Shown: piece by piece, positions 14,918 through 55,454 of the stretch | Numbering within the stretch: position 1 is the stretch's first letter | Layout: every line of letters begins with the position of its first letter | Source: Candidatus Eiseniibacteriota bacterium | GTDB lineage: Bacteria > Eisenbacteria > RBG-16-71-46 > CAIMUX01 > VGJL01 | NCBI GenBank assembly: GCA_041946735.1 | Contig: JBHGAY010000004.1 | Coordinates: 125,626 to 189,625 of the forward strand | Reading direction: 5' to 3' | Length of the DNA stretch: 64,000 nt | The notes under the pieces: generated by a model | What the model was told of the DNA's origin: nothing | Databases searched by the model: none | Seen by the model: only the letters and a program-made list of their open reading frames with translations | Position numbers and translations under genes: made by a program

Positions 14918-15042
14918 ACGGTCCCGCGAGTACGCCCGCGAGGCCGGAGCTGCCGATCGAAGGCGCGGCGGCCGAAGCTCCCGCCCCTGCCGCCACTCCT
15001 CCTCCCGCCGTCCGCTCTTCCTGCCGCCCGCGCACAGCCCGC

Positions 15043-15103
15043 TGGCCGGCCCGGTCCGCCCGGTCCGGTGCGCCCGGTCCGGTGCGCCCGGTCCGGTCCG
15101 TCC
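15043..15103. repeat. CCGGT-rich tandem repeats (GCGCCCGGTCCGGT units)
   Basis: Read directly in the convergent intergenic gap. Confidence 0.65.
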
Positions 15104-15126
15104 TGGCGGCGGGACGCGGCGACTTC

Positions 15127-16245
15127 CTACTTCAGCCGGTCGGGGTTCAGTCCTTTCAGCTCCTTCGGCACGAAAAGCCCGTCCTTGCGCAGCAGCTTGC
15201 CGTCGAAATGGATCTCCCCGCCCCCCTTCTCCGGCCGCTGGATATGGACGAGGTCCCAATGGATCTGCGAACGGTTGCCGTTGAAGCAGTCGTCATAGGC
15301 GTTGCCGAGCGCCATGTGAAGGCTGCCGGCGATCTTCTCGTCGAACAGGGCGTCGAGCATCGCTTCGGTCACGTAGGGATTGAAGCCGAGGGAAAACTCG
15401 CCGACGTAGCGCGCTCCCCGATCGCGATCGAGGATCGCGTTCAGCCGCCCCGTGTTCGCTCCAGCGTCGGCCTCGACAACCTTGCCGTTCTTGAAGCGGA
15501 GCTGGATCTCGTCGAAGACGACCCCTTCGAAGAGGGCCGGCGTGTTGAAGCAGATGGTCCCGTCGATCGAATCGCGGACGGGCGCAGTGTACAACTCCCC
15601 GTCCGGAATGTTCAACTTTCCGTCGCACTTGATGCTCGAGAGACCTCGGATCGAGAACTTCAGGTCGGTCTTCGGCCCCTTGATCTCCACCCGATCGGTC
15701 GCGTCCATCAGCGCCTTCAGCGGATCCATCGCCTTCGACATCTTCGCGTAGTCGAGCGTGCAGACGTCGAAATAGAAGTCCTCGAACACGTGGAGCGGCT
15801 TCTTGGCGTTCTGGGCCATGGCGTTGTTCGGATATCGCAAGACGACCCAGCGTGTCTTCGGCACCCGCGTCTTCATGTGAACCGGCTGGACGTAATGCTT
15901 CGACCACAGGCCGTTCTTCTCGGACGGCACGTCGGACATCTCCATCGTGTTCGCGCTCGCGCGGATCCCGATGAAGCAGTCCATCTCCTTCATCCGGTGG
16001 AGATCGTACTTGGCCTGGGCGCGGATCTGCTCTTCGCCGGCGTCGTGGAGGAAGCGGCGCGTGAGCGTGTCGCTGCGGAAGTTCGTGTAGACATGGGCCC
16101 CCAGCCGCGTCGCCTCGCTCACGATCTCGTGAACGAGGTCGAGCGCGTCGAAGCCGACCGACTCGACGAGGAGCTTCTCCCCCTTCTGGACGCCGCACGA
16201 ATACTGGACGAGGAGTTCCGCGAGCTTGCGATTCCGAGGATCCAT
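15127..16245 (-). CDS. M29 family aminopeptidase (AmpS/AmpT-like)
   Basis: NIPDGE, VGEFSLG, FDEKI, HMALG, IHWD metal ligands; starts MDPRNRKLA after a GGAGG RBS. Confidence 0.92.
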   Translation of the reverse strand: MDPRNRKLAELLVQYSCGVQKGEKLLVESVGFDALDLVHEIVSEATRLGAHVYTNFRSDTLTRRFLHDAGEEQIRAQAKYDLHRMKEMDCFIGIRASANTMEMSDVPSEKNGLWSKHYVQPVHMKTRVPKTRWVVLRYPNNAMAQNAKKPLHVFEDFYFDVCTLDYAKMSKAMDPLKALMDATDRVEIKGPKTDLKFSIRGLSSIKCDGKLNIPDGELYTAPVRDSIDGTICFNTPALFEGVVFDEIQLRFKNGKVVEADAGANTGRLNAILDRDRGARYVGEFSLGFNPYVTEAMLDALFDEKIAGSLHMALGNAYDDCFNGNRSQIHWDLVHIQRPEKGGGEIHFDGKLLRKDGLFVPKELKGLNPDRLK

Positions 16246-39946: not shown

Positions 39947-42900
39947 TCACTTCAGCATCACGAGACGGCTCGAGCTCGACCGTCCCGACTGCTCGAGCCG
40001 CGCCCAGTAGACACCGCTCGGGAGCGGCCGTCCCCCATCGTCCCGGCCGTCCCAGACGACGGACCGCTCGCCCGCCTCACACCGCTCCTCGAGCAGCGTG
40101 CGGACGATCCGGCCCGAAGCGTCGACGACCTGCAGCCGCGCCGTCCCCGGCTCCGGCAACAGGAAGGAGAGGAGCGTCCGCGGATTGAACGGGTTCGGCT
40201 GCGCGGGAGCGAGATGGAGGGTCTGCAAGCCGACCGCGAACTCGGGAGCCGCCACCGTCGCGTCGACCCCGCGAACCTCGATGTCGTCGATCATCCAGCC
40301 GGCGCCCGTACCGAGCGAATCGGACCCGAACCGGAAGCGGATCTGCACGAGCCCGGGGAATTCGGAGAGATCGACCTCCGTGCGCGTCCAGTCGAAATGA
40401 CCGGAGAAGCATGCCGTCTGCTCCGCGAACGGTCCGCCGCGCTCGTGGATCACGTGCGTGTAGCCGCTGTCGGGAACGAGCGGAACGAACTCGCCGCCGT
40501 TGTGCGAGATCTCCAGCACCCCGCCGTCGTACGCGATCGCCGGATCCACGCTATCAGCCTCCGCATCCATGCAATGCCAGAACGCGAGACGCGCCCCGGC
40601 GCCGAGGTTCAGAGGCGGAAGCATGAGCCGCGCGTCCTCGAGCGGCGCATAGCCGGTCGAGTCGCCGCCGCACTTCCACGCATGGGAGCCGCCCGGCGTC
40701 ACGTTCCCGTCATCCGAGACGTGCCACTCGTCCGCGAAGCCTTCCGGCGCTTCGTGCGAGCAGCGAGGCGTCCCGTGGTCGACCGTCTCGAGGAAGCCGC
40801 CTGCGGGCAGGGAGATGTTGAGAATCTGGACGCGGCCGGTGGAGAGCGCGAGCCGGAGGCTGAAATTGAGCTCGGAGCCGGCGAACTCCGGCGCGATCTC
40901 GAACCGGTAGGGCGCGGTCAGGTAGGCCGACTGCCCCGGCTCGAGAGTCGCCAGCTGCGCGAATCCGTTCGTGACGTGGATCATCGGATCGAGGCTCATC
41001 AGGCTCGCGTTGATCCCGTTCGCCGTCGCCGAACCGTAGTTGGTCAGGCTCAACGTCGCCGCGATCGCCTCTCCGGCGTCAGCCCGTCCGTCCCAGTCCC
41101 CCGTGCTGTCGTCGATGATCGCGTCACGGTAGGCGAGGTTCGGGGCGGAGATCCGAACGAGGACCGTGTCCCACCACGTCTGGAACTCGGTCGACGTGAT
41201 CTTCACCTTGAGCGGAAGGTCGGACCCGTCGGCGGCGTTGCGGTCCGGCTTGAAGCTGAAGCCGTCGAGGCCCCACACCATCTGGTCCGGCGCGATGTCG
41301 CCGAAGGTGGCCGTCGAATCGTAGATGCTCGCGCCTCCCATCGACCGCAGCTTCGCCGTCACCCCATGGGCGGGGTCGGTCCCCGTGTTGTGCAGCTGCA
41401 TCGTCAGATCGTTCAGAACCCCCGCGATGGCGACGCCGCCGGTGAGACCCACTTCCTCGACATGCACCATGGCGTTGCTCGGAGAGGTGACATTGACCGT
41501 TCCGAGATAGGTCTGCGCGTTGTACGCGGTGACGGTGAGGGTCAGCGAGGTCCCGACGGCGGGAAGAGGATCGACCGGAATCGTAGCGAGGCCCGAGCCG
41601 TCCGTGTAGGCGGAACCGTAGAGGACGTTGTTCGCGTAGAGCGCCACGCGCGCCCCCGCCACGCCCGTCACCTGCACCGGGAACGTCGCCTGGCCGTAGA
41701 GGAGGAGCGGCTCATGAACGACCGCGAGCGCGGCGGGGTTCGTGGTCCGCATCATGACGGTGCAGTCGCCGAAGAGGTTGTACTGCTCGACCAGCTTGAT
41801 CCCTTCGTACCCCGGCCAGAGGTCCAGTCCCTTGCATGCGCCGTTGAAGCTCAGGCCTCCGAGGGTGTTGCGCTCCTCGTCGCAGAGCAGGCGCACCACC
41901 TCGGTCTGCATGTCGCACGGAGGCACCCACGAGGCGAGAGTCGACGCCGCGTAGATGCCGATCGCTCCCTTCGGAGCCGCAGCGGTCCCCGCGCGCAGCC
42001 ACGCCTCGGCGAAGCACTCACCGTAGGTGAAGTCGCCGTTCGAGCAGGCAACGCTGCAGATGTAAGGGTTCTTGAAGCCGTTCGTGAGGGCGTAGACGTC
42101 GTTCACGTTGAAGCCGGTCGTCGACCAGGCGGTCGTCGATCCGTGGCCGATGTAGTTGACCAGGCTGCGCCCCTCGTTGATGGCATTGAAGATCTGCTGC
42201 TTCGTGGCGGTCGGATCGTAGATCTGGTCGACTTGCGTGTAGTTGTAGCCGAGCAGCACGTCGCGCAGCCAGTTGGCGCGCTGCCAGTCGTAGGCGCCGC
42301 CCCCGTACGCGTTGCTCGCGATGCCTGTCGCCAGGTGGTACCAGTCCCCCGCCGTCCCGATGTCCGGGGTCTTCTCATAGCGAATCGAACGGGACACCTG
42401 GGTCTCGACGTGAGTGGCGTTCTGCGCGGAGATGCGGGAGATCATCGCATCCGGGTAGTGGTCGTTGCCGCTGAGCATCACGTACATCGGGTCGGAGGGC
42501 GCGCCTTCCGCCGTTCCGGTCAGGTAGGGCATGCTCCCCGAATCGCCGACGAGGATGACGTAGGTGAGCGTCTGCGGCTCGTCGTAGAGGCTCTGGATGT
42601 ACGCCTTCACCTGGCTGCCGGTCGATCCGACCTCGGAGAGTCTCTTCAGGATCGTCGGGATCCCCTTCTGCAGCTCCCACTGATAGAGGGGCAGGATCTG
42701 GTTGTAGTACGAGTCGGCCGTGAGGATCAGGCAACGCCCGGGCTCCGGGATCGGCGTGTAGCGAAGCCCGCCGCCTTCCCGCCAGTTCAGGAAGAGGTTG
42801 CCGTAGATCGAGGTGAACTCGGGATCGATCGAGGTCAGCTCCCGCGACCGCGCTAGCGGATTCTTCGCGGGCCCGGGGATCGGGGCGAGCTCGATCGTCA

Positions 42901-43462
42901 TCCGCCGCGCGACCTCCAGCTTCTGCAGAACCGGGTTGTAGCGCACAGGCCGGATCTCGACGACGACTCCGCGGAAGTCGCGGACGACGAACGGGTCGTA
43001 CATCACCGCTTCCTGCGCCGGGAAGTACGCGTTCTTCGCATACGTCGCGCCGAACTGAAACGGCACGGCGGCGGGATTGACGTTCCGCGTGAGGTGTCCC
43101 TTCGAGGGGACGATCGGGGCATCCAGAGGAAGCTCCTCGTAGGTGGCATCCAGGACGCGGAGGGCGACGTTTGCGCGATCGCCGATCAGGATCGATTGTC
43201 GAAGGACCGGAAGCTCGGGCGCTCCGGCTTCCATCAACGCGGGCGCGTCCTCGAGCACGGGAAGGAGGCATGCCCTTCCGTCCGCGTCGATCGGGATTTG
43301 CTGTAGATCGCCCAGCTCCATCTCGATCACCACGTGATCGGGTTCGGAGGAGAGGACGCGGAACTCCGTCTGCGAAGCTCCGAACGCGGCGCCGCAGGCG
43401 AGAACGACGATAAGCAGAGCGACGAAGATGCAAATGCTGCGAGAAGGTCCGAGCTTCGACAT
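39947..43462 (-). CDS. C25 (gingipain-family) cysteine peptidase with propeptide and FlgD-Ig/T9SS-like CTD
   Basis: Propeptide (GAPELP, PSKG); YVILVGD, SDPMY, NYIGHG (His), SVACSNG (Cys), CFAEAW, YNLFGD; QPNPFNP...WDGRD...SGVY CTD. Confidence 0.92.
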   Translation of the reverse strand: MSKLGPSRSICIFVALLIVVLACGAAFGASQTEFRVLSSEPDHVVIEMELGDLQQIPIDADGRACLLPVLEDAPALMEAGAPELPVLRQSILIGDRANVALRVLDATYEELPLDAPIVPSKGHLTRNVNPAAVPFQFGATYAKNAYFPAQEAVMYDPFVVRDFRGVVVEIRPVRYNPVLQKLEVARRMTIELAPIPGPAKNPLARSRELTSIDPEFTSIYGNLFLNWREGGGLRYTPIPEPGRCLILTADSYYNQILPLYQWELQKGIPTILKRLSEVGSTGSQVKAYIQSLYDEPQTLTYVILVGDSGSMPYLTGTAEGAPSDPMYVMLSGNDHYPDAMISRISAQNATHVETQVSRSIRYEKTPDIGTAGDWYHLATGIASNAYGGGAYDWQRANWLRDVLLGYNYTQVDQIYDPTATKQQIFNAINEGRSLVNYIGHGSTTAWSTTGFNVNDVYALTNGFKNPYICSVACSNGDFTYGECFAEAWLRAGTAAAPKGAIGIYAASTLASWVPPCDMQTEVVRLLCDEERNTLGGLSFNGACKGLDLWPGYEGIKLVEQYNLFGDCTVMMRTTNPAALAVVHEPLLLYGQATFPVQVTGVAGARVALYANNVLYGSAYTDGSGLATIPVDPLPAVGTSLTLTVTAYNAQTYLGTVNVTSPSNAMVHVEEVGLTGGVAIAGVLNDLTMQLHNTGTDPAHGVTAKLRSMGGASIYDSTATFGDIAPDQMVWGLDGFSFKPDRNAADGSDLPLKVKITSTEFQTWWDTVLVRISAPNLAYRDAIIDDSTGDWDGRADAGEAIAATLSLTNYGSATANGINASLMSLDPMIHVTNGFAQLATLEPGQSAYLTAPYRFEIAPEFAGSELNFSLRLALSTGRVQILNISLPAGGFLETVDHGTPRCSHEAPEGFADEWHVSDDGNVTPGGSHAWKCGGDSTGYAPLEDARLMLPPLNLGAGARLAFWHCMDAEADSVDPAIAYDGGVLEISHNGGEFVPLVPDSGYTHVIHERGGPFAEQTACFSGHFDWTRTEVDLSEFPGLVQIRFRFGSDSLGTGAGWMIDDIEVRGVDATVAAPEFAVGLQTLHLAPAQPNPFNPRTLLSFLLPEPGTARLQVVDASGRIVRTLLEERCEAGERSVVWDGRDDGGRPLPSGVYWARLEQSGRSSSSRLVMLK

Positions 43463-43717
43463 GCACTGACTCCTTCGGCGGTGGAACCGCGGGAATGAGG
43501 CCCCTCGAGGGCAGGTCGAATCGAATGCGCTAATTGTAGCAGAAAGTCGCTCGTTTCGCTCCCTCGTCCTGCCGGAAAGTGCGCCGCGGCTCGATCCCTT
43601 GATCGATTCGATCCGCTGCTGGAGGACGATCCCGCCGTTTTGATAGACTTATGCCCGTTGCCTTGAGGCGCGGGGATTTCTCCCGCCGGTCGCTTTCCAT
43701 CCGGAGGCAAAGCATCC

Positions 43718-46366
43718 ATGGCTTTCCGCTCGATCTGGCTTTTCCCGCTCGTCTTTGCCGTTCTTTCGATCGTCCAGTCTCCCCTCGGGCCGCAGCCCGC
43801 GCAATCTGCCTCCCTCCCGGGGGACCTTCCCCTGTGGTCGGCCGGCGATCCGGACCCCACCTACCCGTTTTCCGACCGCTTCCCCGTTGCCGTCGTGGTC
43901 TCCAGCGAGGAGGAGGCCCGTTCGGTCGTCGCAACCGGGATCGAGGTGGAGTCGGTCCGTCCCTTCGCGGACGGCTGGATCATCGAGGCGAACGTCAACG
44001 AGGAGGGGAGCCGGCAGCTCCGTGGCGCGGGTTATGACGTTCACAAGCTGCGCAATCTCGCCCTCGAGGAGTTCCGCCTGCATCCGCCGGGAACAGGGGG
44101 ACTGCGCGACTGGCCGACGTACGACCAGCTGATCAGCGAGCTGCAGGGCGTTGCCTCCGCGAATCCTTCGATCTGCCGGATGATCCCGATCGGGACGTCC
44201 GTGCAGGGACGGACGATCTGGATGATGAAGATCAGCGACAACCCCGACACGGAGGAGAACGAGCCGGAGTTCAAGTTCACTTCGAGCATCCATGGGGACG
44301 AGGTGACCGGGATGGAGCTGTGCCGCCGGCTGATCCACTACCTGGTCGACAACTACGGCACCGATCCGACTGTCACCTCGTACGTCAACGGGATCGAAAT
44401 CTGGATCTGCCCGATGCACAACCCGGACGGATTCGTGAACGGAACCCGCTACAACGCGCACGGCGTCGATCTCAACCGCGAGTTCCCCGACCCGATCACC
44501 GATCCGATCGACACTCCGGACGGCCGCGAGCCCGAGAACCAGGCATTCATGTACCTCGGCTACGACCACCGCTTCGTCCTCTCGGCGAACTATCACGGAG
44601 GCGCGCTGGTCGTGAACTATCCCTGGGACAGCCACGTCGCCTATACGCCGGACGACGAGATGATCGAGACCTTCTCGCTCGGCTACTCGTACCGGAATCC
44701 ACCGATGTGGAACTCGTCGCAGTTCTATCACGGCGTCACCATCGGCTGGGACTGGTACATCGTCAACGGCGGCATGCAGGACTGGTGCTACGAGTGGCGG
44801 TCGGACATCGACGTGACGATCGAGGTGTCGACCACGAAGTGGCCGCCTTACAGCGCCATGGACACGTTCTGGTCGCAGAACCGGGACGCGATGCTCTACT
44901 ACATGAGCCGGACGCTCACGGGCGTTGGCGGGATCGTGACCGACGCGAACACCGGCCTGCCGCTCGACGCGACAGTCGACGTGGTGGAGATCGGCAAGAC
45001 GATCCGCACCGATCCGGACGCCGGCGACTACCACCGGCTGCTGCTCCCGGGTACCTACACATTGCAGGTGGAGGCCGCGGGATACCTGCCGCAGACGATC
45101 CCGGGGATCGTGGTCCTCGACGGCCCGGCGACCGTTCGCGACGTGGCTCTGCTGCCGCTTCCGACCTACGAGGTGAGCGGACACGTGACGGAGCAGGGGA
45201 CCGGGCTGCCCCTGCCCGCGACCGTGCGCGCGTACCGGCACTCCAATCAGGAGCTGGTCGCGCAGGCTTCGACGGAGCCCGCCACCGGCGCCTACTCGAT
45301 CGGACTGCAGGCCGACACCTACGACCTCCGCGTCTCCGCGGCCGGCCACGTGGGAGAGGAACGGCAGATCGAGGTGACGGGGGACCGGGTGGAGGACTTC
45401 GCGCTCCGCAGCATGGCCGAGGTGGTTCTCGTCGTGCAGGACGGAGCGCAAACGAGGATCGCCACCGATTTGGCGGCGATTGGCCTCCCATATCACGTGG
45501 AGACGGCGGCGGCGACCGATCCGGCGGCCTGGTCGGAGTACCGGTGCCTGGTCTGGTCGGCAGGGCCCAACGGCGATCCGGTCGCCGACGCCTCAAAGCG
45601 GGCCGCTCTCGAGGCGTACGCCGGGGCGGGCGGGCGGCTCCTGATCGAGGGGGGGCAGATCGGCTACGACACGTTCCAGAATCCCGGATACCCGAGCTTC
45701 GGCGCGCACGTGCTCCACGGATCCGGTTGGCACACGAACAACGCCGGAGATCTGATTCTCTCCGAGGCGGATCACCCGGTGGCCACGACGCCGAACCTGC
45801 TCTCCAGCACGATCGACATCCAGTACGTGACGACTGGAGACGAGGACTCGGTCACGCCGCTCGCCGGCGCGACGTTGATCTACCGCACGACGAGCTACGC
45901 CGGGGACGCGGGCATCCTCGCGTTCGACGACGATCCGGATAGTCCCGCGACAGGGCAGATCCTCTACTACGCGTTCTCCTACGACCGGCTCGCGGACACC
46001 GCGAACGCGCGGAGGCTCCTCGAGAACTCGATCGCCTGGCTGCGTCGCACCGATCCGGCCGCCGTGCCGGACGTCGAAGGCGGCTCACGCTTCGCGCTCG
46101 GCGCAGCGTTCCCGAATCCGGCGAGCGGCACGGTGCGCTTCCGGCTCGAGTCGGGGAGCGGCGCCGCGGTCTTCGAAGGCGCGATCTTCGACGTGCGCGG
46201 TCGCCGCGTCGCAGCCACGACGAGCGGTTCGCTGCGGATCGGCGGCGGATTGCTCGAGTGGGACGGCCGGCTGCCCTCCGGCGAAGAGGCTCCCGCCGGG
46301 GTTTACTGGCTCCGTGCCCGGGTCGACGGACGGGACGAAACGAGGAGCTTCCTCCGCATCCGGTAG
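43718..46366 (+). CDS. Secreted M14 zinc carboxypeptidase with regulatory-like domains and FlgD-Ig/T9SS-like CTD
   Basis: SIHGDE, NPDG, DLNREF, ANYHGG, YPWD, GGMQDW, TIEVS; FPNP...WDGR...AGVYW CTD. Confidence 0.93.
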   Translation: MAFRSIWLFPLVFAVLSIVQSPLGPQPAQSASLPGDLPLWSAGDPDPTYPFSDRFPVAVVVSSEEEARSVVATGIEVESVRPFADGWIIEANVNEEGSRQLRGAGYDVHKLRNLALEEFRLHPPGTGGLRDWPTYDQLISELQGVASANPSICRMIPIGTSVQGRTIWMMKISDNPDTEENEPEFKFTSSIHGDEVTGMELCRRLIHYLVDNYGTDPTVTSYVNGIEIWICPMHNPDGFVNGTRYNAHGVDLNREFPDPITDPIDTPDGREPENQAFMYLGYDHRFVLSANYHGGALVVNYPWDSHVAYTPDDEMIETFSLGYSYRNPPMWNSSQFYHGVTIGWDWYIVNGGMQDWCYEWRSDIDVTIEVSTTKWPPYSAMDTFWSQNRDAMLYYMSRTLTGVGGIVTDANTGLPLDATVDVVEIGKTIRTDPDAGDYHRLLLPGTYTLQVEAAGYLPQTIPGIVVLDGPATVRDVALLPLPTYEVSGHVTEQGTGLPLPATVRAYRHSNQELVAQASTEPATGAYSIGLQADTYDLRVSAAGHVGEERQIEVTGDRVEDFALRSMAEVVLVVQDGAQTRIATDLAAIGLPYHVETAAATDPAAWSEYRCLVWSAGPNGDPVADASKRAALEAYAGAGGRLLIEGGQIGYDTFQNPGYPSFGAHVLHGSGWHTNNAGDLILSEADHPVATTPNLLSSTIDIQYVTTGDEDSVTPLAGATLIYRTTSYAGDAGILAFDDDPDSPATGQILYYAFSYDRLADTANARRLLENSIAWLRRTDPAAVPDVEGGSRFALGAAFPNPASGTVRFRLESGSGAAVFEGAIFDVRGRRVAATTSGSLRIGGGLLEWDGRLPSGEEAPAGVYWLRARVDGRDETRSFLRIR

Positions 46367-46574: not shown

Positions 46575-47153
46575 ATGAAGCACATTGCTCTCGTCTGTCT
46601 TCTCTGTCTGATCGCGACCGCCGCGTTCGCCGAGGGGCCTCGCGTTTCCTACGGCCCTCCGGGCGACCCCGTCAACCTCCCCGACCGGGAGGACGTCTGT
46701 CAGTACGGCTACGTCGACATGCAGCCGGGGCAAGGCTGGAGCCTTTACGCAGGCCAGCAGCTCGGCATTCTCTGCTTTGCGCCGGGGAGCATTTCGGCGG
46801 TCGGCTTCTACGTGGAGTTCGTCTCTGTTCCCGGCAATCTGGATATCGTGATCTACGACGGTGGAACGGAGGTGAGCCGCACCTCCGTGACTCCGACGAC
46901 CGGGGACAACGAGTTCGACATCGACGACGTCGCCATCGCCGGAGACGCCTGCATCATGCTCTGTCCGACGAGCTTCGACGGCGTCACCGGAGAGGACATC
47001 AACAGCGCTCCGTACGGCAACTGCTTCTGGAGCGCTTCCTGTCAGTGCTCCAATCCCTTCACCGACAACAACCTCACGATCTGGGCGGTCACCGGGGCAC
47101 CGGTCGCGACCGAGCAGCAATCGTGGGGCGCGCTCCGGATGCTCTATCGCTGA
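46575..47153 (+). CDS. Small secreted Cys-containing protein with a C-terminal SWGxxxxxYR motif
   Basis: GGAGG RBS; signal peptide; ends PVATEQQSWGALRMLYR; TACAAT upstream at 46486. Confidence 0.85.
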   Translation: MKHIALVCLLCLIATAAFAEGPRVSYGPPGDPVNLPDREDVCQYGYVDMQPGQGWSLYAGQQLGILCFAPGSISAVGFYVEFVSVPGNLDIVIYDGGTEVSRTSVTPTTGDNEFDIDDVAIAGDACIMLCPTSFDGVTGEDINSAPYGNCFWSASCQCSNPFTDNNLTIWAVTGAPVATEQQSWGALRMLYR

Positions 47154-48710: not shown

Positions 48711-48767
48711 CGTCACCCGCGGATGCGCACCATCCGCGGCGTCACTCCCGGATGCGCACCATCCGCG
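48711..48767. repeat. 29-nt tandem duplication of the S8 gene 3' end; the distal copy forms a 9-bp hairpin
   Basis: CGTCAC(CCG/TCC)CGGATGCGCACCATCCGCG x2; CCGCGGATG-CGCAC-CATCCGCGG at 48717-48739. Confidence 0.8.
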
Positions 48768-50334
48768 CCGTGCTCCGGCCCGCGTCGCTCTCCACACGGA
48801 CGAAGTAGACGCCGGGGGCGACGCGCGATCCTCGCTCGTCGCGGCCGTCCCATGAGAAGCCGCCACGCGCGTCGCGATCGAGATGCGCCCTTACCTTTCG
48901 TCCCGCCAGATCGAACACAATCGCGGTGGCATTCGCCGGCTCGCCCGCCAGCCAGTCGATGCGGGCCGTTTCTCCCGCCCTTGCCGGGTTGGGCTCGACG
49001 CGAAGAGCGGCGCCGCCCCACGCGAAGGGCGAGTCGCCGACGCCGGCGGCGAAGGGCGTGTTCTCGAGCGTCGAGAGCGCGTCGAAGCGTCCCGTGCCGA
49101 GCAGTCCGAGGAACGGATCGTTTTCGGGAATGCCGTAGATGTCGACGATCCCTTCTCTCGAGGCGCGATAGACCGCCTCGACCGGCATGTCCGGGCTCAT
49201 CCCGCGGATCAGAGCGCACTGCCCGCTGACGAAGGGTGCGGCGAAGGAGGTGCCCGCGCCGATCGCATAGCCGCCGTCGTAGTAGGCGGAGAGGATACCG
49301 ACGCCTGGGGCGGAGACGTCGACCGCCTCATTGAAGTTCGAGAAGGAGGCTTTCACGTCGGAGGAGTCGAGCGCCGCGACCGACAGGCATTCGGGATTGC
49401 TCGCGGGATAGTAGTACGGGCGGTCGACGCCGTCGTTGCCGGCCGCTCCAATCAGCGCAACGCCGAGACTTTCGGCGCGCTCGACCTCGTGACGCAGGAT
49501 GGAGCAGTCGACGGGAAGCCCGAGGCTCAGGTTGATGACCCGGGCGCCGTGGTCGACGGCATAGCGGACCCCCTTCGCGACCGTGAACGTCTGGCCGACT
49601 CCCTCGTCGTTCAGCACGCGGATCGGCAGGATCTTCGCGCCCGGCGCCACCAGGTGCAGGATTCCCGCAACCATGGTGCCGTGCCCCGCCCCTTCGTCCA
49701 CGGTTCCGTCGCCGTCGTCGTCGATGCCGTTCGCTTCGTCGTACGGCTCGTCGTCCCCGTCGACGAAGTCGGTCCCGCCGGGCTCGATCGCCCCGTCGAG
49801 CGCCTCATGGTCCATTCGGACACCGCCGTCGACGAGGGCCACGATGACGCCGTCGCCCCGCGCGTGCTCATGGATCTCGTCGAGGTGGAGCCGGACGGCC
49901 ACGTTCTGATCGAGGTACCCCTCGATCGTCTCGCCTACCGCCGCGACCACCATCTGGTGGCTTCCCTCGGGCGCCTCCCCCTCCCAGACGTACTCGACCT
50001 CTACGATCCGCGGGTCGTTGCGCATGAGCAGGAGGTACTCGTCCTCCGTCCCTCCATCCGGAAGATCGAGCCGGTAGAGAGGGGGAAGGGAATCGATCAC
50101 GGTCGTTTCGTAATCGGCGTTGATGGCGTCGATCGGGACGCCGGAGGCCAGCTCGATCTGGATCTCCCCCGCAAGCCAGCCTGCCGCGGCGGCGGGTGCG
50201 GGGGTGCCGGCGATGGCGGCGATGGCCGCAATGGCGGCGAGAAGCACGATGGCCGGGATCGGGAGGGTCCGGAAGATCCGCCGTCGATCCCGCGCGGAGC
50301 GATCGGCCAGACCGGCACGCGGCTGCTGCGTCAT
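48742..50334 (-). CDS. Secreted S8 (subtilisin-family) serine peptidase with FlgD-Ig/T9SS-like CTD
   Basis: ALVDGG (Asp), GHGTMVAG (His), AAGN, GTSFAAP (Ser); signal peptide; EPNP...WDGRD...GVY CTD. Confidence 0.93.
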   Translation of the reverse strand: MTQQPRAGLADRSARDRRRIFRTLPIPAIVLLAAIAAIAAIAGTPAPAAAAGWLAGEIQIELASGVPIDAINADYETTVIDSLPPLYRLDLPDGGTEDEYLLLMRNDPRIVEVEYVWEGEAPEGSHQMVVAAVGETIEGYLDQNVAVRLHLDEIHEHARGDGVIVALVDGGVRMDHEALDGAIEPGGTDFVDGDDEPYDEANGIDDDGDGTVDEGAGHGTMVAGILHLVAPGAKILPIRVLNDEGVGQTFTVAKGVRYAVDHGARVINLSLGLPVDCSILRHEVERAESLGVALIGAAGNDGVDRPYYYPASNPECLSVAALDSSDVKASFSNFNEAVDVSAPGVGILSAYYDGGYAIGAGTSFAAPFVSGQCALIRGMSPDMPVEAVYRASREGIVDIYGIPENDPFLGLLGTGRFDALSTLENTPFAAGVGDSPFAWGGAALRVEPNPARAGETARIDWLAGEPANATAIVFDLAGRKVRAHLDRDARGGFSWDGRDERGSRVAPGVYFVRVESDAGRSTARMVRIRE

Positions 50335-50378
50335 GGCTCTATTCCCTCCATACCTTCTTATCTTCGAAGCGATCGCGG

Positions 50379-50408
50379 ATTATAGATCGAACCGACCGCC
50401 CGGGTCAA
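50379..50408 (-). promoter_or_regulatory. Sigma-70 promoter for the S8 gene, overlapping the CHAT gene stop
   Basis: TTGACC (50403-50408)-18 nt-TATAAT (50379-50384). Confidence 0.65.
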
Positions 50409-53401
50409 ACTCCGCCCAGCGCCGCGAATGACGCCCAGTGCCATGGATGCGGCCTAAGTCTCATCGTTTCACGCATTGCGAGACCAAGCGCGGCCGGAAC
50501 CGGGTGGCCGGACCGATGAGCGACATGGAACAGCTCGATAAGCTCAAGCGTCGGTTCATCTTCGATCGGCCATAGGCTGGCCACGACCGAGGCCGCGCCC
50601 GCCTGGAGAAAGCCCCGGGCGAGGCCGATCCACTCGTCGCCGGCCGGGGCCGCTCCGCGGCCGGAGGAGCAGGCGGTCAGCACGACGACCGAGGACGGGA
50701 AGCGAAAGCCAGCGAGGTCGTGGACGAACAGAGGCCCATCGGCCAGCTCGATGAACGAGTAGGCCGGGTTGTCGCTGCGCAGCGACCCGTGAGCGGCAAG
50801 GTGAACGAGCGCCGATTCCGCGCCGTTCGCGCGCAGCGACTCTCGTGTCGGAGCGAGATCGGCGTGGACCGTCCATCCGGAGAGAACCGATCCTACCCGC
50901 TCGACCTCACGCTCCACGCCGGGTAGCTGGGACGAAGGGACGCCAGCGACCCACGCACGCCTCTCCGCGTCTGCCGCCGGCGTCCGGGCACCCGGCAGGC
51001 GCAGCCAGACACGCGCGCTCGGGACGAGGCACAGATCGGTCGACTCGGCGAGGTACCGGCCGTCGGGCCGCATCGCGTGGATCGGCACGCGGTGGATCGG
51101 CCCGTGCGGCGAGACGACCCAGCGGCGCGAGGAGTCGACCCCGATCGCGGCGAGCGGCTGCCAGAGGAGGCGGCCGATCTCCTCGAGGATCGCATCGGTC
51201 GAGGCGTGTAGACGGCCGGCGTCCGGGCGACCCGAGGGGGGCAGGAGCGCAGCACCCCCCGCCAGCGCCGTGGAGGGCGACTCCCGAGGGCCGGGAGCCG
51301 GCCGCGTGGCACCGGCTTGGCGCACATGCGTCATTGCGGCCGCTCCCCACTGGAAGTCCAGGCGATCGGCGAGGGCGGCGAGCCGCCTGCGCAGATCGGG
51401 ACGGAGAAGCGTCCAGCGCACCGTCCGGTCGGTCAGCGCGAGCGCGATCGAGAAGCGCGGTCCGACGTGGAAGCTCAGGAAGCCCCATCCTTCCGGGAGC
51501 CTCGAGCGAACCTCATCCAAGGACGGGGCAGCCGACGGCCGGATGCCGAGCGCGTCGATCGTGCGGCGCGACTCCGCCTCCTGTCGCTCCCGCAAGGCCT
51601 GGCTCCACGCGCGCTCCGCCGCGGCGAGCCGCTCGCGGATCTCGGGAATGTGCGCCCGCTCTTCGGGAGAGCCAAGCTCGATGCGCCCGAGACGCGCATG
51701 GAGCCAGGCGAGCTGGCGCCGCAGCCCCGGCTCGCGTTCACGCGCTCCCCGCCGATCATCGTCGCGGGTCGCATGCGTCGCGCCTGCGCCGGCGGCGGAC
51801 TCAGCTGGATCCGCTGCCGGGACCCGAAGCCGATCCCAAAGGCTTTGCGCGCGAGAGCGCTCCATCCACTCGAACAGACGCGCCGCCGAGGGCCTGACGG
51901 CCTGTAGCTCGAGCGAAAGCAGCCGGTCGTAGAGATGCGCCTTGTCGCTCAGAAACGCGATCTTCGAGTCCTCGGTCGGCACCCGGGCGCGCAGGCTCTC
52001 GAGCTGCTCGACCGCGCGGCGATAGGCGGTCGAGGCGGCGCGCGCGCGTCCCGCCTCCTCTTCGGCCGGACCGAGCGCCTCGAGCACGCGGTAGGCGGTC
52101 GCGGGATACACCGGCGCCGGCACGCGGCGCAGGAGGGCGCGCAGCCGGGCGGCGCGCTCCCCGGGCGGCCGCCGCTTTCTTTCGAGGCGCTCGAGGAGGA
52201 CGACCGCGTTCGCCTCCCAGCGCACGAGACCCATTTCGCGGAAGGTGGAGAGCGCGGCGCCGGCACGGACGAGCGAAGCCTTTCTGCGTCCCGCCTGCGC
52301 GAGCCCCTCCGCCCACAGCAGCTCCATGAAGGCGGCGCGCGGCCGGTTCTTCTCCAGCAGGAAGAGCCGGCGGGCTTCGCGCCCACGCTCGATCGCGCGC
52401 GCCGGCTCCCGGCGGACGAGCGAGGCGAGCGCTCCCTGGGAAAGCGCGAGCGCCGCGAAGTAGCGCAGCCCGAGCCCGAGGAAGTGACGCGCAGCCTGCT
52501 CGCTCAGATCCAGGGCTTCCGCCGCGAGATTCAGCTTGTTGTAGATCTCCGCGCGTGTGAGGAGGCAGGAGGCGAGGAACGAGAGATGCCCGGTTTCCTC
52601 GAAGTAGGGGGCGGCCCGGGCGAGGTCGCGCAACGCGAGATCGTAGTCCCCACGATTCGCGTGGACGAAGGCGGCGTTCATCCGCACCTGCGCGAGGAGC
52701 AGGTCGTAGCCGCGAGCGGCGCACTCCTGCTCGAGCCGCGAGAAGAGGTCGAGCGCCTCGACGTCCCGGTCGAGCTGCGAGAGCGCGACGCCCCGGTTGA
52801 CATCGAGCCCGATGACGGTCTCGTCGCGCAGCCCGAGACGATGGAAGGCCTGGCCGGCCCGCTCGTATTCGAGGAGCGCCGGCCCGTAGTGATCGCGATG
52901 GAACTGGATGTTGCCGAAGTTCATCGCGAGCTTCGCCAGGTAGGTGTCGTCCCCTTCGGCGGTCAGATGCTGCCGGGCCTCCTCGGCCGTCGCCTCGGCG
53001 TCGGCGTAGCGGCCCAGCATGGCGAGCACGTGGATCCTTCCGACGAGAAGCTGGCCGAGCAGCGAGCGCGCGCCCGCGGCGCGCCAGAAGCGCGCGGCCG
53101 TCTCGTAGGAGGCTTCGGCTTCTTTCATCCTGCCGGAGAAGAGCCAGGCTTCGGCCATCGACCGGTGCGCCCATCCGCTGGACAGAGGATCGCCGAGGAT
53201 TCCGGCGATCTCGATCGCGCGCGATGCGATCGCGCGAGAGGTCGCGACATCGCTCTGGAAGAAGCGGCCGGCTTCGTCGCGGATCGAGCGGAGGAGCGAG
53301 GCGGGATCGTCGAGCGAGGCGGCGGCGATCGCCTCGCGGAGGCGCTCGCGCGGCAGATCGATCCAGTCTCGGAGGGAAGCGGGCGCGAGAGAGGGGTTCA
53401 C
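50405..53401 (-). CDS. TPR-repeat CHAT-domain (caspase-like, clan CD) protease
   Basis: About 600 aa of TPR-like helices, then PHGPIHRVPIHA, LPGVEREV, VHLAAHG (His), VVLTACSSG (Cys), GLARGFLQAGA, SLWPIED, HPWHWASF; GTG start overlaps the upstream stop. Confidence 0.92.
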   Translation of the reverse strand: MNPSLAPASLRDWIDLPRERLREAIAAASLDDPASLLRSIRDEAGRFFQSDVATSRAIASRAIEIAGILGDPLSSGWAHRSMAEAWLFSGRMKEAEASYETAARFWRAAGARSLLGQLLVGRIHVLAMLGRYADAEATAEEARQHLTAEGDDTYLAKLAMNFGNIQFHRDHYGPALLEYERAGQAFHRLGLRDETVIGLDVNRGVALSQLDRDVEALDLFSRLEQECAARGYDLLLAQVRMNAAFVHANRGDYDLALRDLARAAPYFEETGHLSFLASCLLTRAEIYNKLNLAAEALDLSEQAARHFLGLGLRYFAALALSQGALASLVRREPARAIERGREARRLFLLEKNRPRAAFMELLWAEGLAQAGRRKASLVRAGAALSTFREMGLVRWEANAVVLLERLERKRRPPGERAARLRALLRRVPAPVYPATAYRVLEALGPAEEEAGRARAASTAYRRAVEQLESLRARVPTEDSKIAFLSDKAHLYDRLLSLELQAVRPSAARLFEWMERSRAQSLWDRLRVPAADPAESAAGAGATHATRDDDRRGAREREPGLRRQLAWLHARLGRIELGSPEERAHIPEIRERLAAAERAWSQALRERQEAESRRTIDALGIRPSAAPSLDEVRSRLPEGWGFLSFHVGPRFSIALALTDRTVRWTLLRPDLRRRLAALADRLDFQWGAAAMTHVRQAGATRPAPGPRESPSTALAGGAALLPPSGRPDAGRLHASTDAILEEIGRLLWQPLAAIGVDSSRRWVVSPHGPIHRVPIHAMRPDGRYLAESTDLCLVPSARVWLRLPGARTPAADAERRAWVAGVPSSQLPGVEREVERVGSVLSGWTVHADLAPTRESLRANGAESALVHLAAHGSLRSDNPAYSFIELADGPLFVHDLAGFRFPSSVVVLTACSSGRGAAPAGDEWIGLARGFLQAGAASVVASLWPIEDEPTLELIELFHVAHRSGHPVPAALGLAMRETMRLRPHPWHWASFAALGGV

Positions 53402-54174
53402 CGTCCCGGACCGGCCGAGAGATCGAGCGGTCCGAGGCTCAGCACGAGATCGTTCCAGCCGATCTTGATCCGAACCTCGCTCGGCTTGACCGCGCGGAAC
53501 TGGAACTCCCCGTGCGGCGTCAGCTTCCGAGTCGTCTCGCGCCCGTCGCTCTCGAGAGTGACCGTGCCGGAGATCGGCTCGGCGGGTGTGACGTTCGCGG
53601 GGAGGAACTGGCCGAAGATCTGGAGCTTCTTCGACGCCTCGGGCTCGATGCGGAGGTGGAGGTTGCCGGCCTCCGACTCGAACAGGAGCTGGCGGGGCTG
53701 CAGCGCGGTCGTGCCTCGAATGCCGGGAAGCGCCGCAGCGAGACGGCTGTCGAGGGCGAGGCCCATGCGGATCTCTTCGACGATCCGGCGCACGGCTCCG
53801 CCTCTTCGGGAGCGATCGGCGGCCCGTGCAGCCCTGGCGATCCGGCCCGCCCGGGCGTCTCCCGGCTCGGTCGCCGCCGCCGCAGCAGCCGCAGCAGCCG
53901 CCGCGGCCGCCGCAGCAGCAGCGGCCGCCGCATCGGCGGACACGGCCGTGTGGTTCGCCTCCAGCGCCCGCACGCGCTCGATCGCCTTCTGCATCCAGAC
54001 GTCCGGAACGGCGGGAAGCGCCGGCGACTTCAGCGAGGCCAGGATCGCCTCGAGCTGTCGCAGCCGCGTGCGGCACGTCTCGCACCCGCCGTCGATATGG
54101 GCGCGGACGGTGGCGAGCTGCTCCGCGTCTCCCTCGATCGCGGCGATTAGGATCGTATCGCTCGGATGCTTCAT
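53398..54174 (-). CDS. Putative zinc-finger (ZAS-like) anti-sigma factor with poly-Ala linker and C-terminal beta domain
   Basis: MKHPSD...AHIDGGCETC; LDSR...GIRG...RQLLF; TPHGEFQF; no TM segment seen; lies downstream of the ECF sigma gene. Confidence 0.7.
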   Translation of the reverse strand: MKHPSDTILIAAIEGDAEQLATVRAHIDGGCETCRTRLRQLEAILASLKSPALPAVPDVWMQKAIERVRALEANHTAVSADAAAAAAAAAAAAAAAAAAAATEPGDARAGRIARAARAADRSRRGGAVRRIVEEIRMGLALDSRLAAALPGIRGTTALQPRQLLFESEAGNLHLRIEPEASKKLQIFGQFLPANVTPAEPISGTVTLESDGRETTRKLTPHGEFQFRAVKPSEVRIKIGWNDLVLSLGPLDLSAGPGR

Positions 54175-54320
54175 CCGCTGCCTCTCCCCGGGGAGGGATC
54201 GCCCCCCTTGCTGCGGTCCTCGTCGAGCCCTTCGCTGGAGAGGTCGGAGGAGAAGGCGGGATGATACAGGCAGTGGCGCACGCAGCCGCCTCGCGGCTCC
54301 GCCACCCCGGCCATGTTGGC

Positions 54321-54410
54321 CTGCCGGCCTGCGATCTGCTCCATCCCGGCCTGCCGGCCTGCGATCTCCTCCATCCCGGCCTGCCGGACCGCTATCCGCT
54401 CCATCCCCGC
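54321..54410. repeat. Three 30-nt tandem units; the proximal one holds the ECF sigma stop codon
   Basis: CTGCCGGCCTGCGATCT(G/C)CTCCATCCCGGC x2 plus CTGCCGGACCGCTATCCGCTCCATCCCCGC. Confidence 0.85.
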
Positions 54411-55045
54411 TCCTCGTACACCTTACGCATCCGCTCGAGACACCGGGCGCGCGTCGGCCCGATGCTGCCGATCGGCATTCCCTGCCGGCGGGCGATTTCG
54501 GCGTAGTCGAGCGGAGGCTCCTCGAAGAAGAGCAGGCGCAAAAGCTCCCGGCAGCGTTCGGAGATCGCGTCGAGCGCCTCGGCGATCTGCTGGCGATGCT
54601 CGAGATCGGCGCGAATCTCGTCGGCGAGGGGGCGAGGATCGTTCGGCTCGGCCGACCGTCCATCACCGCGCTCCTCGATCTCGTCGATCGAGGTCTCGCG
54701 CGACCGCATCTTTCCCCGGATCCGGTTCACCGCCTGGCGATAGGCGATCCCGATCAACCAGGACGGCAGCCGTCCCGGGTCGCGAAGCTTCGGCAGATCG
54801 GTGTAAAGGACCGTGATGGTGGACTGAAATGCGTCCTCGCGGTCTTCCGGCGTCAGCCCGACTTTGAGAATCACCGCATGGATCAGGTTCGCGTAGCGGC
54901 GGATCATTTCCTCCCACGCTCCCGGCTCGTGGGCGATACACAGGCGAATCAGCTCCTCGGCGGGGATTCCGGGAAGCTCCTGCGCATTCGGCGCCGCTCG
55001 GACCGTGGCGCGCGGGCGCTCGCGCCAGGTGCCTTCCTCTGGCAT
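54392..55045 (-). CDS. ECF (sigma-70 group 4) RNA polymerase sigma factor
   Basis: Region 2 AWEEMIRRY...DREDAFQ...LPSWL; region 4 SERCRELL...YAEIA...GMPIGSIGPTRARCLERMR. Confidence 0.93.
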   Translation of the reverse strand: MPEEGTWRERPRATVRAAPNAQELPGIPAEELIRLCIAHEPGAWEEMIRRYANLIHAVILKVGLTPEDREDAFQSTITVLYTDLPKLRDPGRLPSWLIGIAYRQAVNRIRGKMRSRETSIDEIEERGDGRSAEPNDPRPLADEIRADLEHRQQIAEALDAISERCRELLRLLFFEEPPLDYAEIARRQGMPIGSIGPTRARCLERMRKVYEERGWSG

Positions 55046-55454
55046 CGATCGATCCTACATTCGGAGCAGGAGCCGCGATTCTTCGGGACGGACCATGCCG
55101 GCAACACTAGCACAGCTCCAAGCCCGGCCCGCCTGCTCCCGCAAGTATCAGGGCGCGAGCCAGCGCGACAACCGGAGTTCGCCGTTCCCCTCGCCGCCCG
55201 GAATCCTGGCTGGGGTCGAACCAAGCATCGAACTTCCAGTAGGGAAGGGATCATGGATCCGGGCTGGCCCACGAGCGAAGCAGAACCGCCCGTAGGTAGC
55301 CACTCCCGCGGTCTGGGTCACCGTGCGGCCGGCCCGGCGCCCTCCTCCTCCGGTCGGGCCCGTGCGCCGCTCAGCCGCCTCCGCGGCATGGTGCGCCTCG
55401 CATTCCATGCGCCTCGCGTTCCCCTCCGGCCCGCGATCGGCGACAATCCCCGCG

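Follow-up and report, generated by a model that had tools for sequence, protein, structure and literature searches.

A stand-alone sigma/anti-sigma/TPR-CHAT unit in Candidatus Eisenbacteria: a candidate proteolytic switch with the gene context of ECF54

In the type III-E CRISPR system craspase (Cas7-11, Csx29, Csx30 and CASP-sigma), Csx29, a protease of tetratricopeptide repeats and a CHAT domain (TPR-CHAT), cuts Csx30, an inhibitor of CASP-sigma (PMC10028731). In Myxococcus xanthus, DdvA carries a zinc-binding anti-sigma (ZAS) domain fused to TPR-CHAT (PMC11506125). A closely similar gene context has been described for ECF54, a sigma factor group belonging to the extracytoplasmic function (ECF) class. 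The present study concerns a four-gene unit in a 64,000-nucleotide stretch of the Candidatus Eisenbacteria contig JBHGAY010000004.1 (hereafter, the window), which encodes an ECF sigma factor, a soluble ZAS-type anti-sigma factor, a TPR-CHAT protease and a secreted S8 protease. A sequence-only reading had proposed a stand-alone proteolytic switch, and on the evidence of gene linkage, the ZAS profile and a model of the protease/anti-sigma complex this is still the best reading: we hold it fairly probable that the cytoplasmic CHAT protease cuts the anti-sigma factor, freeing the sigma factor, which drives secreted proteins.

The published ECF54 description gives the group as 100% Actinobacteria with 'Lack of putative AS factor'; a CarboxypepD_reg-like protein is always encoded at +1, a subtilase at +2 or -1, and genes for CHAT and TPR proteins lie in the vicinity (Casas-Pastor et al. 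2021, PMC7826278). The predicted promoter is GTATCAG at -35 and CTCC at -10 (PMC7826278, Supplementary file 1 part 14). A review that files ECF54 as 'regulated by proteolysis' does so as no more than a proposal, of direct proteolysis without an anti-sigma factor (PMC8999054). The locus studied here shares the gene context and the predicted promoter of this group, none of whose members is known to have been studied by experiment. Subtilase and TPR-CHAT are present, the +1 protein has a sandwich that is weakly PF13620-like in some homologues, and the window's GTATCA...CGACCTCTCC agrees with the published motif; our GTATCA motif had been derived before the ECF54 description was seen. Since context and promoter agree, we call the unit ECF54-like, an assignment by description. 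The actinobacterial host and the missing anti-sigma factor, which are descriptive traits and not formal criteria, do not hold here: the host is Candidatus Eisenbacteria, the +1 product is read as a soluble ZAS-type anti-sigma factor, and CHAT stands at +2 with S8 at +3 or -1. In our reading, the '+1 CarboxypepD_reg-like' gene of ECF54 would be the counterpart of gene 2, with its zinc-finger domain unrecognised. The sigma-CHAT-S8 neighbourhoods that the sequence-only reading mentioned in other bacteria are the published context of ECF54; the neighbourhood is therefore already catalogued, and never explained. A literature search, thin on subscription journals, found no mechanism paper on a stand-alone sigma/anti-sigma/TPR-CHAT unit. 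The soluble ZAS anti-sigma assignment, the predicted seating of an invariant Arg loop in the active site of CHAT, the internal sigma-dependent promoter and the occurrence outside Actinobacteria appear not to be in print.

The four-gene unit and its linkage

All four genes lie on the minus strand and fill positions 48742-55045 of the window; every checkable point of the earlier description of this layout holds. Gene 1 (54392-55045) encodes an ECF54-like sigma factor of 217 amino acids (aa). It matches Sigma70_r2 at 2.5e-8, above the Pfam cut-off, and TIGR02937 (sigma70-ECF) at 2.8e-20 (72.6 bits versus a cut-off of 42.9); its matches to r4 (3.3e-4) and r4_2 (5.6e-4) are both slightly under the Pfam cut-off. 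The protein has regions 2 and 4 of sigma-70 alone, as defines an ECF (group IV) sigma factor, and its closest solved relative is SigK (4nqw, 7.6e-6). Gene 2 (53398-54174) encodes the 258-aa anti-sigma factor, assigned by a profile match to RsiW and a structure model. Gene 3 (50405-53401) encodes the 998-aa TPR-CHAT protease, and its GTG start overlaps the stop codon of gene 2 (GTGA). Gene 4 (48742-50334) encodes the 530-aa secreted S8 subtilase. The G+C content of the window is about 70%, and open reading frames (ORFs) were ranked by third-position G+C.

The genes are linked in other genomes as well, as the proposed switch demands. Gene-context counts given here all come from within Candidatus Eisenbacteria and relatives' loci. 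A first sample of 20 loci was taken, with about 9 kb on either side, from the matches of the gene 2 protein in related genomes and includes the window genome's second copy of the module (contig C45); by tblastn of the four window proteins, it has sigma, CHAT and S8 together in 19 loci, or 20/21 with the window. In every one of 20 distant loci in a second sample, from across the phylum, the anti-sigma gene stands between sigma and CHAT; S8 is adjacent in 15/20, within 6 kb in 17/20 and outside the fetched stretch in the remaining 3. The gap between anti-sigma and CHAT genes is at most 25 nt in 14 of the 19 loci in which both genes were called (window included), and in 6 the genes overlap by 4-8 nt. 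The gene 2 family profile finds members in 85/206 genomes of the phylum (84/205 without the unpublished genome G072), in 54/121 high-quality genomes and in 52/83 genera; a single genome holds as many as 5 copies. Of 41 related genomes searched with the gene 2 protein alone, 28 yielded relatives. Run against one genome per species, a 9-row CHAT alignment gave 16 loci, of which 10 are titled as Candidatus Eisenbacteria metagenome-assembled genomes and 6 as 'uncultured bacterium' or 'bacterium'. The four genes form a real and functionally coherent unit that is ancient within the phylum.

The S8 protein matches Peptidase_S8 at 9.6e-40 and ends in a tail like those of FlgD_ig and the type IX secretion system (FlgD_ig 1.9e-5, Por_Secre_tail 1.1e-4). 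Its triad and oxyanion residues (D169, H218, N300 and S363) are those of a subtilase and are invariant in 12/12 sequences, and its start shows, by eye, a signal peptide with RRxF followed by a hydrophobic stretch, which bears out the earlier description of a secreted S8 protease with an intact triad. The sigma-70-like promoter that had been noticed before this gene is real as a pattern: TTGACC-18-TATAAT at 50379..50408 (minus strand) agrees at 11/12 positions and was found once versus a mean of 0.2 in shuffles, and TAnnAT-like -10 boxes were seen by eye before S8 in several other loci. From this promoter it had been suggested that S8 may not belong to the module, a doubt that linkage in 20/21 close and 17/20 distant loci removes. 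Two arrangements of S8 are found: in some loci it lies downstream of CHAT, in others it diverges from the sigma gene. Often it is a few bases from the CHAT gene or overlaps it (automatic start calls). Because its linkage survives rearrangement, S8 belongs to the module. That the four genes are neighbours by descent only, with no functional coupling, can hardly be credited. The S8 and sigma genes each have their own promoter-like elements, as such a view would allow, whereas the gene order is kept down to about 30% identity, S8 is linked in both arrangements, the anti-sigma and CHAT genes overlap, and the complex model described below passes its controls.

The protease, its soluble partner and their predicted complex

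The CHAT domain of gene 3 matches PF12770 at 2.6e-46 (158.8 bits); a weak TPR_12 match (2.3e-6) is under the cut-off. The protease model (pTM 0.80) has about 11 TPR-like helix pairs (residues ~52-470), then a helical region (477-620) and then the CHAT domain (628-998). The His-Cys dyad of this class of clan CD caspase-fold proteases is present as His871 (codon 50789-50791, minus strand) and Cys911 (codon 50669-50671, minus strand). His871, Gly872 and Cys911 are invariant in 19/19 homologues, and residue 948 is acidic throughout (Asp in 17/19, Glu in 2/19). A TPR-CHAT protein of about 1000 aa with an intact dyad, coupled to gene 2 through its GTG/stop overlap, had been read from the sequence and is what we find. 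By fold, the protease matches Csx29 (1.2e-13), DdvA (1.2e-11) and separase (1.7e-11); its sequence profile reaches Csx29-type chains only (2.3e-10), and DdvA is not reached at E 0.001. By eye, no signal peptide or membrane helix was seen at the N-terminus, so CHAT should lie in the same compartment, the cytoplasm, as the sigma and anti-sigma factors. A further CHAT protein, the genome's third (contig C17; L055 7804-10782, minus strand), has 992 aa and a start resembling a signal peptide. It was ruled out as a module member, as no sigma, anti-sigma or S8 gene stands beside it.

ZAS domains share the pattern H-x3-C-x2-C with a His or Cys about 23-26 residues upstream, carried on a bundle of three or four helices. 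The gene 2 product has H26-x4-C31-x2-C34, the motif of the sequence-only reading, within the ligand set H3-x22-H26-x4-C31-x2-C34; many homologues have x3 in place of x4. The H3-H26 spacing of 23 fits the pattern, and with helices at residues 6-13, 17-28 and 32-49 of the model the protein is ZAS-like. A profile of 18 homologues run against solved chains matches RsiW at 2.5e-4, ChrR at 0.014-0.016 and RslA at 0.64, and this family likeness upholds the assignment of gene 2 as an anti-sigma factor. The four ligands are kept in 36/38 homologues across the phylum and in 122-127 of 135 library representatives, of which 122 have the H..C..C motif; the 135 are the full-length proteins among the best 150 matches in a library of 1.84 billion representatives. 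In the same library the family comprises 1,618 clusters at E <=1e-10, and it is large and unnamed. Three loci of one genus (L024, L026 and L027) have lost all zinc ligands and keep Arg153, the beta domain and the gene order. In a protein atlas, look-alike clusters (score 0.96) have known members mostly from Acidobacteriota, Chloroflexota and Armatimonadota, and in some of them zf-HC2 occurs in 23-27% of members; these are leads only.

In the gene 2 model (pLDDT 85.5) the three short helices are followed by a pair of long linker helices and a short strand, and then by a loop (residues 143-160) and a beta-sandwich (161-251). Weak matches of the sandwich to PF13620 (CarboxypepD_reg) occur in 4/18 homologues (best 3.1e-4) and not in the window's copy. 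A Foldseek search of the C-terminal domain against the PDB gave nothing at E <=0.001, and the matches of a wide VIA structure search were all generic sandwiches of Ig/FN3-like type (best Z 8.2; rmsd 2.4 over 83 aligned residues). The fold is thus generic, and no function can be read from it. No 19-residue stretch of the protein exceeds 1.8 on the Kyte-Doolittle scale, and no membrane-helix-like stretch was found among the 135 library representatives or in any homologue; the gene 2 product is therefore soluble. Across the 38 homologues Asp142 is kept in 36, Gly188 in 37, Arg153 in 38 and Phe224 in 38; of the 135 representatives, 134 have Arg153 and all 135 have Gly188.

The long poly-Ala linker of the sequence-only reading does exist in the window copy, as 20 Ala codons (residues 82-101; 53872..53931, minus strand). 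It is not a family feature: it is an insertion in a linker of variable length, found in 0/17 other aligned homologues and 0/20 distant ones and hence unique to this copy. The run is bridged by one assembly only (X1, probably the source), and its exact length rests on that assembly because the short-read assemblies of other samples break there. Poly-Ala was also considered as a membrane anchor and ruled out, since no homologue has a hydrophobic helix at this place. CHAT had been proposed to cut in this linker, and that proposal has to be given up. The conserved exposed element is a loop with Arg153 beside the beta domain.

In the complex model, too, this loop is part of the contact. The prediction used CHAT residues 151-998 and anti-sigma residues 109-258 only, both with alignments. 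Three runs gave ipSAE values of 0.73, 0.74 and 0.73, versus 0.00 for the best of three controls, with at least 79% of contacts in common and a partner pLDDT of at least 75. In calibration the pass mark was reached by 58/80 solved complexes and 2/110 mismatched pairs, which is only a rough guide here, where our own alignments were used. The structure prediction that had been suggested for the CHAT/anti-sigma pair thus yielded a complex, and the model supports binding of the two proteins. The beta-sandwich is predicted to dock on CHAT helices 679-694 and 726-737, and anti-sigma residues 149-155, a P-G-I-R-G loop, to contact CHAT residues 869-873, 909-911 and 945-948 (including Asp948), which puts Arg153 on the catalytic His871/Cys911. 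The loop has lower model confidence and lies between two folded parts. Arg153 (codon 53716..53718, minus strand) is our proposed P1 residue, on the grounds of its conservation in homologues and representatives and its place in the predicted interface; the acidic residue 948 suits a pocket for a basic P1. Separase cleaves after Arg. Metacaspases are described as cleaving after Arg or Lys (bioRxiv 10.1101/2023.06.23.546230).

A loop on the dyad can be read in another way, as securin sits likewise in separase. The gene 2 product might be a pseudosubstrate that keeps CHAT shut while holding the sigma factor; substrates would lie elsewhere, for example in the sigma factor itself or in other proteins of the cell, and loss of the inhibitor would free protease and sigma both. 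The place of separase among the best fold matches agrees with such an arrangement, and so does the published proposal of direct proteolytic control of ECF54 sigma factors without an anti-sigma factor (PMC8999054). We nevertheless consider it unlikely. An invariant Arg that is followed by a small residue in most homologues and faces an always-acidic Asp/Glu948 is P1-like; cleavage, and more than inhibition, is established for Csx30 and proposed for DdvA, the two characterised relatives; and the unit holds no other conserved substrate candidate.

The zinc site allows a further reading, in which oxidation of the HHCC site frees the sigma factor in the manner of RsrA, and CHAT does no more than clear or reset the anti-sigma factor, or has its action on what is secreted. 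There are many ZAS proteins that do not sense redox state. The ligands are kept in nearly all homologues, the domain resembles RsiW and ChrR, and oxidant-responsive ZAS proteins exist (PMC11506125); two homologues without any Cys, however, keep the whole module and Arg153, and the tight coupling of the two genes and the predicted docking of the beta domain on CHAT would be left unexplained. This makes a redox or zinc switch quite improbable.

Set beside the described circuits, the module would operate as Csx29-Csx30-CASP-sigma does and as has been proposed for DdvA, and it belongs to neither system. With craspase it shares a cytoplasmic TPR-CHAT protease of the same fold, an ECF-type sigma factor and, as read here, a soluble two-domain sigma inhibitor, whose N-terminal part goes to the sigma factor and whose C-terminal part goes to the protease (PMC10028731). 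In contrast to craspase, there is no Cas7-11 here, none of the window's 36 tandem-repeat rows is a CRISPR-like array, and a genome that is 94.8% complete gives no match to RAMP (PF03787), so that activation cannot be RNA-guided; the earlier label 'CRISPR-free' is apt. Furthermore, the protease scores 31.2 bits on the Csx29 model NF041237 of NCBIfam versus a cut-off of 300 and does not belong to Csx29, the anti-sigma profile resembles no solved chain other than ZAS domains, and the proposed P1 residue here is Arg. With DdvS-DdvA the unit shares a zinc-binding three-helix anti-sigma domain tied functionally to TPR-CHAT, and a peptidase gene in the operon, of C25 type there and S8 here, with a C25 gene 7 kb away in the window (PMC11506125). 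DdvA, on the other hand, is a single chain that spans the membrane, has its dimeric TPR-CHAT part in the periplasm and needs RseP, and the regulon of DdvS is a CBASS/CRISPR island; here two genes encode two soluble cytoplasmic proteins, neither with a hydrophobic helix. CalpL-CalpT-CalpS of type III CRISPR is similar in that a soluble protease cuts a soluble anti-sigma-like protein on an ECF-type sigma factor, and different in that CalpL, a Lon-SAVED fusion that cyclic oligoadenylate activates, has another protease fold and another input (bioRxiv 10.1101/2023.06.23.546230). Separase-securin offers the likeness of a TPR-like helical array with a caspase-fold domain and a partner chain in the active site; it has a eukaryotic cell-cycle role, however, and securin is a pseudosubstrate inhibitor and no sigma regulator.

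Promoter element, candidate regulon and proposed mechanism

In 17/21 loci the coding strand of the sigma/anti-sigma spacer, which is otherwise poorly conserved, carries the element GTATCA-N15/16-CGACnnCT. The window copy, GTATCA-N15-CGACCTCTCC at 54237..54267 (minus strand), is a candidate ECF-dependent promoter. In two loci with a divergent S8 gene (L028 and L032) a copy precedes S8. A weaker GTATCA-N15-CGAC copy (19.6 bits; 55145..55169, plus strand) is divergent from the sigma gene, 153 nt before a RecD2-like helicase ORF, and is uncertain as a regulon member. A two-block weight matrix finds 15 matches of at least 16 bits in the genome versus 3 in the reversed genome. Two of the 15 are the module's own copies, and 8 of the other 13 have a same-strand ORF within about 200 nt. 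Four of these ORFs encode signal-peptide proteins with a FlgD_ig tail (a Reg_prop propeller, a CHRD protein, an SBBP propeller and one unnamed); the others encode an IPT/TIG protein, a piece of a hybrid kinase, the RecD2-like helicase and a 71-aa product. The elements before the four tailed genes, at a distance of 100-180 nt (C16:26772-26796, C5:46745-46769, C32:14819-14843 and C49:6447-6472 of the window genome, G000), mark a candidate regulon, with signal peptides recognised by eye.

The window genome has at least 150 FlgD_ig matches, out of 249 candidates, in 4.9 Mb, and the tail was C-terminal in 8/8 proteins checked, an indication that tail-tagged secreted proteins are very numerous. As the tailed fraction is estimated at about 3-6% of genes, four tailed targets out of eight are an excess, but the numbers are small. 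In relatives, a small secreted CarboxypepD_reg protein (about 125-135 aa) with an element before its gene stands beside the module in 5/20 loci (L014 3714-4085; L015 3739-4239; L016 7933-8328; L019 4520-4924; L022 ~14924-15286), and none stands beside the window's module. The element also precedes a GT28-like glycosyltransferase gene divergent from sigma in L013 (11070-12437) and L025 (7280-8581), the two being the window genome's second module and one other genome. Two more signal-peptide-like proteins (by eye) follow an element, one matching FlgD_ig very weakly (E 0.006) and one with weak cytochrome-c-type matches. The regulon output looks like secreted or surface proteins. Because the other copies of the element precede secreted-protein genes, the output is probably a changed secreted or surface proteome and not immunity.

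A defence or stress response had been the expected output. As an antiphage system, the unit would be a craspase-like, CRISPR-independent sensor whose TPR-CHAT protein detects a phage protein and whose sigma factor turns on defence or cell-death genes. The likeness of the protease to Csx29 in fold and profile speaks for this, as do the control of a defence island by DdvA-DdvS (PMC11506125) and weak PADLOC matches (BovA 9.7e-6 for CHAT, 'subtilase' 2.8e-21 for S8). These PADLOC matches, however, are to generic domains, the sigma and anti-sigma factors match nothing, and no PADLOC system is matched. The neighbours are a major facilitator superfamily (MFS) transporter, a RecD2-like helicase and secreted peptidases, with no defence genes. 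Paralogous spread over the phylum, with several copies in a genome, is the pattern of a signalling family, and the candidate regulon consists of secreted proteins. There is only a slim chance that the unit serves in defence, and this part of the earlier proposal is not sustained.

Gene order, conservation, motifs and catalytic residues are observed, and the CHAT/anti-sigma interface is predicted; from these we infer sigma binding, cut site, sigma release, cue and regulon, as follows. The sigma factor would be held inactive by a class-I ZAS-type anti-sigma factor, whose N-terminal bundle, by family likeness, would bind it. The beta-sandwich is predicted to dock on CHAT, so that the Arg153 loop enters the His871/Cys911 active site. 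A cytoplasmic cue, received through the TPR array, would activate the protease, which would cut after Arg153, and the clipped anti-sigma factor would then be lost, probably by further degradation as proposed for Csx30 and RseA. The freed sigma factor would read GTATCA-N15/16-CGACnnCT promoters. In the presumed wiring, sigma and S8 are made from basal promoters and anti-sigma and protease from the sigma factor's own promoter. With this internal promoter between the sigma and anti-sigma genes, activation would re-make anti-sigma factor and protease as a negative feedback, and S8 might be raised by read-through where it is co-oriented. A fuller version, in which a free-standing TPR-CHAT cascade senses an intracellular protein cue, cuts after Arg and switches on a tail-tagged secretome including S8, is possible, at somewhat short of even chances.

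Several points weigh against this mechanism. No Pfam family reaches its cut-off in the window's gene 2 product, and zf-HC2 (PF13490) has no match there and one match among 18 homologues, at E 0.057; the two homologues without zinc ligands keep Arg153 and the module all the same. The locus L023 (G005:C13) has anti-sigma, CHAT and the promoter element with no sigma or S8 gene within 9 kb. The exact promoter pattern is missing in 4/21 loci, the most distant of the first sample, and the second-best match in the genome (contig C3) has no obvious downstream gene. A sigma-70-like promoter stands before S8 and another before the sigma gene, so S8 could be expressed without the sigma factor. No RNA run is listed as containing the locus. 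The complex was predicted from parts of both chains, and its score may lean on model memory, because solved Csx29-Csx30 and separase-securin complexes exist. A pseudosubstrate inhibitor would place a loop in the active site just as a substrate would. Lastly, a cut after Arg153 would spare the sigma-binding domain, so that release needs a further step.

Surroundings of the unit and significance

Upstream of the sigma gene, an extended -10-like element, TGTGCTAGTGT, was recognised by eye at 55104..55114 (minus strand). In most homologous loci a TGTGCTAnnnT element stands 7-9 nt before the sigma ATG (by eye), a position that suggests a leaderless, sigma-70-type sigma transcript. In the window, a 13-codon ORF (55055..55096, minus strand) starts where the leaderless ATG would be and ends 9 nt before the sigma start. 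It repeats the opening codons of the sigma gene (P-E-E) and looks like a small 5' duplication. A 30-bp unit repeated three times (90% matches; 54318-54407) extends from the final sigma codons into the beginning of the spacer, and because of it the sigma/anti-sigma spacer is 217 nt long, versus about 90-160 nt in most relatives. Contig X2, from an independent sample, spans 53984-55250 with zero differences from the window and has the same 13-codon ORF; the sigma gene, the repeat and the short ORF are therefore not artefacts of a single assembly.

The module is flanked by the MFS transporter and the RecD2-like helicase. Farther out, just past the MFS gene, positions 39947-46366 hold secreted C25 (gingipain-type) and M14 peptidases, both with a FlgD_ig tail. 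A 192-aa ORF at 46575-47153 (plus strand) has coding-like composition and is without a Pfam or PADLOC match. No Rfam families were found in the window.

ECF54 has been listed since 2015 without an anti-sigma factor or known control, and the locus suggests that the +1 gene is the anti-sigma factor and the TPR-CHAT protein its protease. If this is true, the missing regulator of the orphan ECF54 sigma factors is named, and an un-armed form of the type III-E Csx29-Csx30-sigma circuit comes into view. Such a CRISPR-free relative of craspase bears on how RNA-guided proteolysis arose from ordinary signalling parts. The hypothesis names mutable residues (Arg153 and Cys911) and a reporter promoter, and, as a tool, a sigma factor that is gated by a protease and has a compact promoter could serve as an orthogonal switch. 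For the uncultured Eisenbacteria, whose genomes are rich in secreted tail-tagged proteins, the unit would provide a first regulatory handle.

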